DNA from: Octopus vulgaris
Taxonomy: Eukaryota
Assembly: GCA_951406725.2 (NCBI GenBank)
Contig: OX597828.1
Span: 23,932,001-23,996,000 of the forward strand
Reading direction: 5' to 3'
Length of the DNA: 64,000 bases
The position numbers and the translations under genes are program-made. The notes under the pieces are model-generated. The model worked only from the letters and a program-made list of their open reading frames with translations. It was not told where the DNA came from and searched no databases. This document shows positions 8,992-55,445 of this stretch, piece after piece. Position 1 is the stretch's first letter. The number at the start of each line of letters is the position of its first letter.

Positions 8992-9297
8992 GTGCAGCAT
9001 GGAAAATTAGATTCACTTCAAAATTTTAATTTAATTTACCAAAATATTATCGTCGCTTTGAGACCTCAACTTGTTCACTTCCAAAATTCCGTACTCGGAA
9101 TTTTGTCAGTGAACAGTCAGAGAACAGGTCGCGGTCTCAAAGCGACGATAATATTTTGGCAAATCAATTTTAAATTTTGAAGTGAATCTAATAGTTTTTG
9201 CATGTATTTAATTGGCTTATAAACACCTTCACGTTGCTATTGTTTTTGCTTCAGCACGATCTCAGATCAGGTTACTTGCTATGCAAGTACATCTCCG

Positions 9298-9300
<3 letters not shown>
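8992..9300. repeat. Palindromic head-to-head pair of a short repeat (family E) with a hammerhead-shaped G3-C8 motif
   Basis: 9006-9090 is the imperfect reverse complement of 9097-9193. The same family occurs as a monomer at 55300-55445. Confidence 0.8.
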
Positions 9301-9367
<67 letters not shown>

Positions 9368-9884
9368 ATATAATATAGTATAATATAATATAGTATAATA
9401 TAATAATATTTGAAATCTACGGACAATTTTACTCACGCTGGCCATTAGTAAACATTGATATTTAATTTTTACCCTATATTTAGATTTAAATATTTTAATT
9501 CTAAGAGTCATATAATTCACTGCTGAATGTTCATTCACTGCTGCTTTTTTCTGGTTTTAGGTGCGTTGTTTGTTGAACATTTTCAATTGAATTCCTCGAT
9601 GCATAAAGATGGATGTGTATGTTGTCTAAGGCGGTATGTATTCGAGTTTTATAATTATATGTCCATACCAATTGTCGCTGATGAGCTATAGATGGTCAAT
9701 GCATTGATTCAATCGTCAATCATTTTTGCATTCACTCAAATTGTCCTGCCTGTCTACATGCAACGTGCTAAAATAATAGTTTATTTCGTGGTTTGCCATT
9801 TAACTCCTATTTCAAGCGTGTTGGAAAACTACTTAGTGGCTTTTCTCTTTGTGTTTAAATTCTACACACACACACACACACACG

Positions 9885-13471: not shown

Positions 13472-15042
13472 TAGTTTTATTTTTATAGCGTGCTTTCACT
13501 TCACTACCGAGCACAGCTCTGTGTGCCTTGGGTATGTGCTGTGATTTGTTGTGATGCTCTGATGGTTATTGTATGGAAAGTGTTCTGCGTAGGATGTGTG
13601 CAGTGCCTAGTAGTGCAATTTTCTGTATGTTATATGTGTTTGTAAGTCCTGGTGTTTTTGTTATGTACTTATCTGAATATTTTTTTATCATGCCTAATGC
13701 ACCTACTATGATAGGAATTGTTTCTGTTTTCAGATTCCACATTCTAGTTACCTCTATTTCCAGGTCTTTGTATTTTGAGAGTTTCTCCATTTCTTTTAGA
13801 GACACGTTGTCATCTGCCGGTATTGATACATCAATTAGAAAGCATTTTTTTCTTCATGATCTCTGACAACTATATCTGGTCTGTTGGCCTTAATTTCTCT
13901 ATCTGTGTGTATCGGCATATCCCAGAGTATGGTTGCTTTCTCGTTTTCTGTGACCTTTTCTGGTGTGTGCCTATACCATCTTTTTTCTGTTGTTATTCCA
14001 TAATGTTGGCATAGCTTCCAATGTATGTAGGTTCCAACTCTGTCATGTCTGTGAATATATTCCTTCTTAGCCAGGACTGGACAGCTAGAGATAATATGAT
14101 TTATTGTTTCTTGTCCATCTCCACATATTCTGCAGTTACTTGTAATATTTCTTTTCATTACATGTTTTTGGTAATTTCTGGTGGGGAGGCTTTGGTCTTG
14201 TGCTGCAATTAAAAATCCCTCTGTTTCTACTTTGAGTCCTGAGCTTCTCAACCATTGCTGGGATTTTTCTTTGTCTATTTCTTTTGCGTTTAGTTTAGTG
14301 CAGTATTTACCATGAAGGGGCATTTCTTGCCATCGTTTTATCATGGTTCGCTGCTGTTCTATTTTTAGTTTGGATTTCATTTGTTTTATAGCTTTTGTTG
14401 TTTCTTCATCATCTTCTTCTTCTTCTTCATGTTTATTAGGTGGTATGATGTCTTGTTTGTATTTGTCAGCTTCCTTAAATACTGAGAACAGTTTTTTATT
14501 TTGCTCGTGTTTTGCTGCTATCTGGATCAGTTTTCCTTCCTTCTGAAGTAGATATTTTTGCAGTCCTATGGTGGTTATTTTATAGTAGATTTCCAGCTGT
14601 ATAAGGCCTCTACCACCTTCTATACGTTGTATATATAGTCTTTCTATGTCAGATTTTGGGTGATGCATCCTAGATCCTGTCAGTATTTTTCTTGTTTTCC
14701 TATCTATTTTGGACAGTTCATTTCGTGTCCAGTTAAGGATATTGTAGCTGTAACTTATAACTGGGACAGCTAAAGTGTTGATACCTATTATCTTGTTTTT
14801 AGCATTGAGCTCTGTTTTTAGTATTGATCTAACTCGTCTATAATATTCTTTTTTTATTTTTCTCTTTCATTTGTGTGTGTTGTGTCTTGTCTAGTTTATG
14901 GATTCCTAAGTATTTGTAAGTTTGGCTTTGGTCTAATTCTTTTATTTCATTGGTTTTATCTAGTGTGATGTTGTTACTCTTAACTAGTTTTCCTCTTTTC
15001 ATGGTTACTTTGGCGCATTTTGCTAATCCAAATTTCATATCT
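13468..15042 (-). mobile_element. 5'-truncated Dong/R4-clade non-LTR retrotransposon (end of RT, CCHC finger, RLE endonuclease), frameshifted
   Basis: ORF pieces KFGLAKCA...YKYLG, CRICGDGQETINHIISSC...YIHRHD, RPDIVV, EKLSKYKDL, PIIVGALG. Both ends abut (TAA)n, the known Dong target. Confidence 0.9.
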
Positions 15043-15055
15043 ATTATTATTATTA

Positions 15056-15086
<31 letters not shown>

Positions 15087-15884
15087 AATTACAGTTATTA
15101 CTGTTGACATTGTTGTTGCTGTCAATGTTTCTATTGTCGATATTGCGGCTGTTGTTGATTTTTTTTTTTGAGCTTCGCTTAAACACCAGCCATCGTTCAT
15201 ATCACGTCTTTGTGATCTTCATATTGCTGCTATTTCTCTTTATTCTGATTCTTGCTTTCGTTGTTGCTGTTATTATTGTTGCTACGCTACTGATGATGAT
15301 GATGATGATAATGTTGTTGTCAGCACAATTGATAGTGTAGACTTTGTTCGTTGGTTTTTGTTGTTAGTCTTCTTTCAATTTTCTTTTATTTGATCTTTCA
15401 TTTTGAAGTAATTGCTACGGCCCCCGCTGCTATTACTGCTGCTCCTGCCGATGTTGCTGCTGCTGCTGTTGTTGTCACTGCTGCTGCTGCTTTCGAGAAT
15501 GTTGTTGTTGTTGTTGTTGCTGCCACTACAGTTTTTGTTTTGTTGCCACTCCTATTGCTATTATTGCAGCATCTGCTGTTGTTTTTGCTTCTGCTCCTGC
15601 TGATGTTGTTTGTTGTTGTTGCTCATGTTGTTGTTGCTGTGTCTGCTGTTCTCGTTATTTCTGTTGTTGTTCTTAAACTTCGGATCAACCCAGAGTGGAA
15701 CTTTAACCCAACACTTTCCTCGTGTACCCAACTTTCTTCCTTATCCGAACATATTACATATCTAGAACTATATTCTGAATTGTGGTTTTGGGAATATTTG
15801 ATAACTATTTCTAGCAAGACAGCCATCCGTGTTGCAGCCATTGCTGCTGCTTATTCTGTTTATTTATTTTGTGTGTCTGTGTAT

Positions 15885-18178: not shown

Positions 18179-18634
18179 ACTCTCTCTCTCTTTCTCTCTC
18201 TCTCTCTGTATATATATATATATATATATATATCGGTTTACGTATTCGTTTTGCAAAATTCTTGATGTGAACTCGTGTGTTGAAACAGATATTGTTGTAT
18301 GTGGGGACGGTCATGTTGCCAGTTTAACCAATGAAGCACACGCACTAATGTATATATATATATATATATATATATAATGTCTTTAAATTGTTTCAGCTTC
18401 AAAGCTGCGGTCATGCTGGGGCACCACCGTTGCCTGTGCTGTAGAGTTATTTGGAACCTTCGCTGATATGTGACATTTGGTGAATGAGGGAGTGTAATGC
18501 TGCTGCTACCATCTGTGTTTTCTGCTGCGATGTAGGCTCATATGGAACCCTTGAGAAGAGGAGATACATATATATATACGTATATATGTATGTATGTGTG
18601 TGTGTATATATATATATATACATACATACGCACG

Positions 18635-37679: not shown

Positions 37680-39425
37680 ACATTAATATGTGAATCCACC
37701 TCTGATATGTGGCACTTGGTCAACAAGGGAGTTCGATGCCGCTGCCCGCATCTGTGTCTCCTGTCATGAGGTAGGTTTATCTGGGACATCCGACAAGAAG
37801 AGATCCAGTTTAGTTTTAAAGGAACCCGCATCCACACCATGCAAGTATCTCAGGCATTTAGGGAGGATGTTAAAGAGCTGTGGTCCTCTGAAACCCAAGC
37901 TGTTGCAGTATCTGGTCCTGTACTTTGATGGTGATGTTGGAATCTTTGGCATCATGCGGTTGGTGGTAACTTTGAATGCCAAAGTTTGGGACAAGACCCT
38001 CTAGGATTTTCCAGATGTATATCACCGCATATCTCTCCCGCCTTCGCTCTAGGGAGAAGAGTTTTCATACTTTCAGTCTTTCCCAGTAGCTGATATGTTG
38101 CATTGAGACGATCTTCTTTGTGTCGCTTCTTTGAATTGCTTCGAGTTTTCCTGTTAGTTTTATATTGTGTGGTGACCATACTTAGGAGCAGTAGTCCAAG
38201 CGGCTGAGGACGAAAGTTTTCCACAGGACCATCAGTGTCTCCTTCTCTCTTGTTCTGAAAGTTCGGAGAATCCATCCCATTAGCCGTCTGCATTTTATCA
38301 CCAAATTAGTAATATGCACTTGGAAAGATGCATCATTGCTCATGTCAATGTCCAGGTCACGCGCTGATTTTGACTCAGGGATTGCAATTCTTCCCGGGCC
38401 AGTGTATCCAGTCTGCATGTCGTTTACCTTTGTGTGCCGGTAGCGCAGGGCCTGGAACTTACCTGCATTAAACTGCATGTTGTTGTCCTCAGCATACTGT
38501 TTATTGTATCCAACTCCTGTTGCAGATGTGCAATATTTCCAGGGTTTTGTATTGTGTGGGAGACTTTTGTGTCATCTGCATAGCTAGCAAGGGTGGCCAT
38601 CTTAGCAACTGATGGCATGTCTTAAAGGGCCACTATGAACAGCAGTGGCCCCAAGACAGTGCCCTGTGGAACACCGCTTGTTATTTGTGTTTCCTTGGAG
38701 GTGGCTCCATTGCTCACAAGTGCCTGCCTTCTATCTTTTAGGATATTGTGCAGCCACTCTACAAGTTTTCTGCCTATGCTAAGACCACGCAGTTTGTGAC
38801 AAATCATACCGTGGTCGCATTTATCAAAGGCTTTTGAAAAGTCGAGATATATCACATCCATATTTGAGCCATTTAGTAGCTGTTTTAACACCCAGTCATA
38901 GTGTTGCAGGAGCTGTGTTAGGCAGCTTCTACCTGGTCGAAATCCATGCTGCGTGTCAGTGAGCAAGTCATTTTCTTTAAGGAACATCATTAGTTCCTTG
39001 CGGACTATTCGTTCCATGACTTTGCTGATGTGTGAGGTCAGAGAGATAGGCCTATAATTTTTAGCATCTGCTCTGCTTCCTCCCTTATGTATAGGGCATA
39101 TTTCAATTTGACCGGGAGCTTGCCACTTGCAAGAAAGCTCTGAAAAAGAAGCTGTAGCGGTTTTGCAAGGACTCGTTTGCACGATTTGAGAAGGATCGCT
39201 GGAAATCCATCAGGTCCAGCAGATGAGTTTGTGTCAATCTCATCTATGGCGGGTGTGATATCATCATCTTCGATGTTGATGTACTCAATTTTTGCCTCGT
39301 TGGCCGCAGGTAAAGTGGCAAAGAATTCTTCTGGGTTGTTTACTTGCCTGTGTCCTAGAGGTGTAGTGAACACACTTTGGAACTGTTCGTTCAGTATTTC
39401 ACTTATCCTCGTGGGATTTCCTGTG
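37680..39425 (-). mobile_element. 5'-truncated CR1-group LINE, reverse transcriptase pseudogene
   Basis: [60 protein letters not shown] and FKTKLD motifs spread over several frames. Confidence 0.92.
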
Positions 39426-55231: not shown

Positions 55232-55298
<67 letters not shown>

Positions 55299-55299
55299 A

Positions 55300-55445
55300 A
55301 TTGCAGCATGGAAGGTGTTTATAAGCCATTTAAGAAACACACAAAAGCCGTTCGATTCACTTCAACATTTAAGTTTAATTTGTCAAAATATTTTCGTCGC
55401 TAAAATCCGCGACCTGTTCACTGACAAAAATCCGTGCTGCATCTC
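55300..55445 (-). repeat. Family E short repeat with hammerhead-shaped G3-C8 motif (55379-55428)
   Basis: Reverse complement TTTGTCA-GTGAACA-G-GTCGC ggatttta GCGAC-GAAA-ATAT-TT-TGACAAA. Flanked by TA runs. Confidence 0.7.

Follow-up and report, generated by a model that had tools for sequence, protein, structure and literature searches.

The stretch of Octopus vulgaris DNA analysed here (64,000 nucleotides of contig OX597828.1; hereafter the window) carries on its minus strand a solo pLTR copy of a Penelope-like element (PLE), and within this copy, at 55379-55428, lies a motif of type I minimal hammerhead shape whose core reads GUGAACA (Table 1). The copy is 98.7% identical to a natural full-length copy (L010:1502-1709), and 39 further copies stand among its best matches at 97-99% identity.

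Table 1. Features of the GUGAACA motif, of the copy that carries it and of the older copy near 9 kb (window positions).
Feature	Position	Strand	Remarks
Solo pLTR copy of Penelope-like element	55295..55445	-	element 1-151; ends at the short 3' end; TA microsatellites on both sides
Inferred transcription start A (55444) and likely cap-derived extra G (55445)	55444..55445	-	
Stem I, 5' strand	55428-55422	-	letters and predicted fold
Core box G3-U4-G5-A6-A7-C8-A9	55421-55415	-	G3 = 55421, C8 = 55416; homologous to C3-G8 of sister families
Extra G between A9 and G10.1	55414	-	an extra base is typical of metazoan PLE hammerheads (PMC4209133)
Stem II (5 bp, first pair G10.1-C11.1) and 8-nt loop II	55413-55396	-	strands 55413-55409 / 55400-55396
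G12-A13-A14	55395-55393	-	
Palindromic stem III, AAUAUU	55392-55387	-	
U17	55386	-	predicted cut 55386/55385, inferred from hammerhead numbering
Stem I, 3' strand	55385-55379	-	5' end of the predicted 3' product
First codons of retrotransposon ORF	55295..55329	-	ATG at element position 117; truncated by the 3' end of the copy
Decayed inverted arm of older copy	9007..9095	-	element 8-95, 79%; G3 and C8 kept, A14 to U, stems I and II broken
Direct arm of this older insertion, likewise decayed	9096..9300	+	up to element 208, 83%; 11-nt core duplication, A14 to U

The minimum-energy fold of the 59-nt stretch around the motif consists of stems I and II, which flank the core and leave the structure open at stem I (-15.4 kcal/mol, z -3.36, equalled by 1 of 200 shuffles), and stem II has a predicted pair probability of 1.00 and is paired in 100% of its cells across 15 family representatives; the whole 208-nt element is without unusual structure (z -0.96). 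The letters U4, G5, A6, A9, G12, A13, A14, A15.1, U16.1 and H17 and the pair G10.1-C11.1 match the hammerhead consensus. C3 and G8 are absent, with G3 and C8 in their place and every other conserved core letter canonical, and the motif is for this reason filed as a hammerhead variant rather than as a canonical member. The 3-8 pair of hammerheads serves to position residue 8's catalytic 2'-OH. When a covariance model was built from 12 canonical C3-G8 relatives alone, the motif was nonetheless its best match in the window (E 1.5e-5), so that letters, fold and model all bear out the minus-strand type I geometry with a GUGAACA core that an earlier note on this DNA had described. The palindromic stem III of that note needs trimming: a palindrome is present, but stem III proper is its central 6 nt and not the 10 nt quoted, which take in A13, A14, U17 and U1.1 and whose pairing there would compete with the active core.

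GTGAACA is also found at 9072-9078 (-) and 9109-9115 (+), in the two arms of an older insertion, and the canonical-relative model ranks a 9-kb arm second in the window. The earlier note was right to read this recurrence as a family trait, but the arms are not intact hammerheads (A14 is changed to U twice, with broken stems or an 11-nt duplication), and since they lie head-to-head on opposite strands they cannot form a dimer. Elsewhere in the window, 9670-9701 (+) is a partial match to the hammerhead model that covers the first core box only (E 0.048), and 18237-18340 (-) is a 3' fragment of a sister-family pLTR with its ORF start (76% over 29 aa) and no hammerhead. At 13835-15218 (-) lie disrupted frames of a non-LTR retrotransposon, presumably R4/Dong-like, in which a zinc knuckle and a restriction-like endonuclease motif can be recognised, and at 38182-39209 (-) what are presumably LINE-type reverse transcriptase fragments.

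An exact 18-mer spanning the G3-C8 core occurs 6,616 times genome-wide (counted as arms, not insertions), against 0 for the reversed control, so the motif is not a product of chance; with C3-G8 in identical flanks the 18-mer occurs 8 times, always in other families. A looser pattern gave 7,086 G3-C8 and 1,890 C3-G8 matches genome-wide (controls 14 each). The multicopy natural G3-C8 family that had been proposed from this one stretch is thus real, and so is its predicted invisibility to CUGANGA filters. A metagenome scan for relatives returned 59 stretches, none of them confirmed.

Copy shapes were read from 59 loci with 99 arms, a sample in which 30 loci are top matches of a query beginning at element positions 1-10 and in which 75 of the 99 arms start at those positions; the arms end mainly at 144-153 (45/99) or at 200-208 (52/99). 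Head-to-head pairs occupy 35 loci, single copies 23, and one locus (L008) has six copies in tandem with TA runs between them. A short unit in thousands of copies with a type I hammerhead, tandem at one locus, is what would be expected of a non-autonomous retrozyme, whose short RNA is cut by its ribozyme into monomers, circularised and reinserted, and retrozymes have been proposed to derive from PLE pLTRs (bioRxiv 10.64898/2026.07.22.740005). Tandem order, however, is confined to 1 of the 59 loci, where TA runs split the copies; the copies end at 1-10 and near 149 or 208 and not as circular permutations at the cut; and the identical sequence is the pLTR of ORF-bearing copies. A non-LTR retrozyme is defined by tandem monomers that lack an ORF and are delimited by the ribozyme cut; the repeat is not built in this way, and a retrozyme origin is very improbable.

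The motif is part of the pLTR of a Penelope-like retrotransposon and not a free-standing ribozyme repeat. A 5' extension common to loose ends in three runs has 531 occurrences, and the 5'-extended copies share more than 1.5 kb upstream, reaching a C-terminal GIY-YIG domain. Upstream of the pLTR the element has a single ORF with a reverse transcriptase (RT) and, at its C-terminal end, a GIY-YIG endonuclease (CCHH), which has at least 150 matches at 81-100% and open frames of up to 1,025 aa (L145, in which the first ~27 aa come from an inversion). The RT of the L145 ORF was recognised by eye from its YVDD motif, a Pfam search of this ORF giving GIY-YIG at 25.5 bits (cut-off 22.6) and no RT match. 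Among loci with a 96-100% ORF match, 17 of 18 have the G3-C8 motif ~1 kb downstream of the stop; the motif region is present in 8 of 14 older loci (81-89%), as G3-C8 in six, as G3.G8 in one and with a deletion in one. The G3-C8 element has been recently active. Two other leads to the parent were set aside: the tandem loci L129 and L130 are local duplications without an ORF, and a search with the GIY-YIG family yielded a Neptune-like family and not the parent element.

The last 90 nt of the pLTR (30 codons) encode the start of the ORF, 10 of 25 residues being identical to the N-terminus of the sister ORF (E 6e-4). The element has a pLTR, an optional tail, an inverted 5'-truncated partner and TA targets, the last three of which are a signature of Penelope-like elements (PMC8557442). 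It is like the Nematis-clade PLEs of that source in its C-terminal GIY-YIG with CCHH, short linker, tail, inverted arms and TA targets, and the linker before the endonuclease, a short CX2-5CxxC, is by eye like two Nematis rows of the supplement (PMC8557442); the likeness is one of linker and features. Among the octopus entries in the table of PMC8557442 are Naiads. At the 5' end, the letter before AGATG is G in 11 of 17 short copies and C in 30 of 30 parent-type copies (p 3e-5 for the excess of G, against an assumed 18% G). The extra G is likely a copied cap, with transcription starting ~23 nt before the core, although some of the G's could reflect microhomology with the inverted arm. A spliced junction at this start was rejected: the upstream sequence resembles a 3' splice site, but the short copies keep the AG, and no matching exon end was seen by eye.

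One copy (L018:1504-1711) has A>G and T>C changes at several places in contigs of runs X4 and X9 (at 1598, for example, 20% and 12%), and runs X1 and X17 are nearly without them. These changes resemble A-to-I editing of hairpins of inverted copies, in runs that are only guessed to be RNA and have no DNA from the same individual. At G3 and C8 no alternative letter reaches 3% in four runs (organisms labelled A, A, B and E).

In the octopus genome a sister lineage, whose protein is 55% identical to that of the G3-C8 family, groups with it at SH-aLRT 100 (a quick tree of 29 proteins, which took in 26 of 120 homologues and in which the U3-A8 row is a long branch), and its pLTR has a motif at the corresponding place with C3-G8. 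When the hammerhead structure is laid over 15 representatives, 91.8% of cells are paired, as against 25-47% when it is slid along the alignment, and 6 pairs change on both sides, a count that left out two U3-A8 rows lacking the extra base and lying in another register; the stem covariation for which the earlier note had proposed a test is present. Positions 3 and 8 are Watson-Crick in all 15 (C-G in 10, G-C in 5), and since the representatives are related, the change at 3-8 counts as one evolutionary event between two lineages.

Could two hairpins in an unrelated repeat have come by chance to look like a hammerhead? An Rfam search of the 106-base stretch with the motif gave no hammerhead match, and in one of the entire window the matches listed, 150 out of 238, amounted to microsatellite miRNA noise. 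Yet the canonical relative L171, run as a control, is missed by Rfam as well, the model of canonical relatives finds the motif, and the motif sits at the same pLTR place as the sister's canonical one. Positional homology together with covariation refutes a chance origin, to which we assign next to no credence. The motif is almost certainly homologous, family-wide, to the minimal hammerhead of PLEs.

C3-G8 is the general hammerhead consensus, and G3-C8 is for that reason most simply regarded as the derived state. With C3-G8 at the homologous place in the sister lineage, covarying stems and a distant U3-A8 family in the same genome, the swap is fixed, and G3-C8 is a natural variant that likely arose by a compensatory change. 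The U3-A8 hammerhead belongs to the Neptune-like family (L076-L098, e.g. L080:2660-2713 (+)), which has a 781-aa open frame and a long linker before the endonuclease; its hammerhead is without the extra base and lies several hundred bases downstream of the endonuclease. In the youngest sister family, which has an ORF of ~1,312 aa with at least 150 matches at 99-100%, the motif (L195:5717-5767 (+), L196-L198) has C3-G8, A9 changed to C, and U17 in 8 of 8 pLTRs examined, and older copies of its pLTR have A9 and C17. The idea that U17 changed in step with G3 found no support, since canonical relatives (L169, L174, L189, L193, L195) also have U17.

Within the G3-C8 family, variants common to at least 10% of 148 arms affect none of 14 core columns, none of 10 in stem II, 1 of 14 in stem I (which keeps a wobble) and 5 of the 8 in loop II; overall such variants fall in 1 of 42 columns of core and stems as against 21 of 165 elsewhere, a borderline difference (p 0.053) in a sample chosen in part by the core 18-mer. 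Among 42 arms picked independently of the core, 37 of the 39 that cover the site keep G3, and the same number keep C8. Genome-wide, 400 copies have a letter other than C at position 8 and 194 a letter other than G at position 3. No subfamily with a single swap (G3.G8 or C3.C8) was found among these variant copies, and G3.G8 was rejected as an ancestral intermediate, its copies being scattered over all subfamilies and, in 11 of 14 pairs, confined to one arm. C8 to G (L199-L237) was seen in 39 of the first 100 of the 400 non-C8 copies, ~2.2% of arms and about five-fold over background (C to G elsewhere 0.42%), scattered over subfamilies and often in one arm only; G3 to C, in 10 of the first 100 of the 194 non-G3 copies, is at background level.

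In much of its architecture the motif is like the minimal type I hammerheads of metazoan PLEs described by Cervera and de la Pena (2014, PMC4209133), which also lie in the pLTR, have an extra base between 9 and 10.1, G10.1-C11.1 and a short palindromic stem III implying a dimer, and occur mostly in solo copies with some opposite-strand pairs. It is unlike them in having G3-C8 and not C3-G8 and an extra G where their consensus has H, and in the far greater uniformity of its copies. Natural covariation of the core is known as U3-A8, in Schistosoma (~1,300 hits; PMC4209133) and as a compensatory 3-8 change in the survey of Perreault (2011, PMC3088659), which discarded core changes in repeats unless tested (section 13). 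U3-A8, which the Neptune-like family of the octopus genome also has, keeps the pyrimidine-purine geometry and takes two transitions, whereas G3-C8 inverts it and takes two transversions. The same swap as in the octopus family has been engineered (C3G/G8C; reviewed in PMC8495972): in the hammerhead of the Poseidon PLE of Anolis, whose cleavage depends on the protein of the element, the double mutant recovers part of the activity (PMC11167929), and G3-C8 is less favourable when combined with C17 than with G17 (PMC3884650). The Anolis element also has two priming sites for reverse transcription close to the start of its ORF (PMC11167929), and the octopus family, with its tail set by two such sites, appears to be alike in this. 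Engineered G3-C8 hammerheads are laboratory mutants, while in the octopus G3-C8, with U17, is what a family with long open ORFs carries naturally. Our literature search, of incomplete coverage and from excerpts, found G3-C8 only as an engineered change and U3-A8 as the natural one in print, so that, within this coverage, the purine-pyrimidine inversion at 3-8 had been known only as a laboratory rescue; priority is not secure.

Whether the motif cleaves is a harder matter. Stem III pairing in the monomer is predicted at 0.0002, a G3-U17 wobble that lengthens stem I at 0.60-0.67, and an all-A-U dimer (-28.8) as no more stable than two monomers (-30.8); with stem III unformed, a G3-U17 trap and no gain from the dimer, low activity is to be expected, needing a partner or a protein. 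Other PLE hammerheads are likewise of low activity and need one or the other (PMC4209133). The G3-C8 motif probably retains weak self-cleavage, likely assisted by a dimer or a protein. The partial rescue by the engineered swap speaks for this, and there is good evidence that elements of this kind put up with weak or altered cores.

Copies that begin at the predicted cut bear on this question. A pattern for a break before element position 61 gave 62 matches, and the 61 loci examined contained 60 insertions: by eye, 25 begin at 61 and are linked there to an inverted arm or to flank (13 of these share 1-3 letters at the joint), 7 re-start at this position, 16 reflect stem I microhomology, 5 are point mutants and 7 are deletions or unclear. 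In 2 of the 60 both arms start at 61. Starts at the predicted cut, 32 of these 60 selected insertions, compare with a rough expectation of 3-8, a crude estimate that has no matched control at neighbouring positions and that was derived from the 26 internal 5' truncations in 227 arms outside the pattern, none of which begins at 61 itself and 3 of which begin no more than 2 nt from it. These starts are a hint in favour of cleavage. The 11 nt after the predicted cut re-start repeatedly at two loci (L256, L296), and both arms start there at two (L256, L299); similar re-starts are seen at the 5' start of the element (L043, L019).

We propose the following course of events. The pLTR promoter would start a capped RNA ~23 nt upstream of the core, and a cut after U17 would fall between the cap and the start codon, the ORF beginning ~57 nt downstream of this cut. 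Within the first 30 codons the element protein would use two priming sites for reverse transcription, giving 3' ends near 149 and 208, and priming inside the upstream pLTR would yield the thousands of solo copies of ~150-208 bp, which often have an inverted arm as partner. The majority of template RNAs would stay uncut, while a minority, cut after U17, would lose the mRNA cap, and the slower swapped core would keep the cut fraction small. That G3-C8 is a naturally active hammerhead tuned down in this way, so as to decap a minority of the mRNA, with the cut-site copies as a fossil record of cleavage in vivo, is a tentative reading that we would place somewhat short of even.

Alternatively, the motif may be a hammerhead descendant with no meaningful rate of cleavage, its fold and sequence kept near the transcription start for another job, such as that of a promoter element or a protein platform, and the swap fixed under relaxed catalytic selection. 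Most G3-C8 copies are indeed uncut (the predicted cut site is spanned in 129 of 148 arms of a largely core-selected sample), a G3-U17 trap is predicted, the inserted base is the G that departs from the published consensus, and a highly active sister family has changed A9 to C. Cleavage is also dispensable for insertion in vitro, on which hammerhead mutants have no effect (PMC11167929), and Naiad elements are prolific without canonical hammerheads (PMC8557442). However, the changed core positions are the only two known to pair, and they have changed into a Watson-Crick pair; the remaining core letters and the stems are retained in subfamilies with ORF differences of up to ~19%; no G3.G8 or C3.C8 subfamily was found; and copies starting at the predicted cut exist. 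Such a loss of cleavage is unlikely, though it deserves serious consideration, and weak, assisted self-cleavage is the reading that we prefer.

A natural inversion of the 3-8 pair in an amplifying family broadens the functional core consensus of the hammerhead, and it means that whole families escape CUGANGA filters. What hammerheads do in Penelope-like elements, a question still debated in print (PMC8557442, PMC11167929), becomes directly testable in the octopus, where active families that are related differ in their cores, have long open ORFs and have left insertion junctions by the thousand. If the reading of a tuned-down, naturally active hammerhead is true, the recently active Penelope-like families of one genome would between them have C3-G8, U3-A8, G3-C8 and A9C cores, an allelic series provided by nature in which to ask what part the ribozyme plays in transposition.
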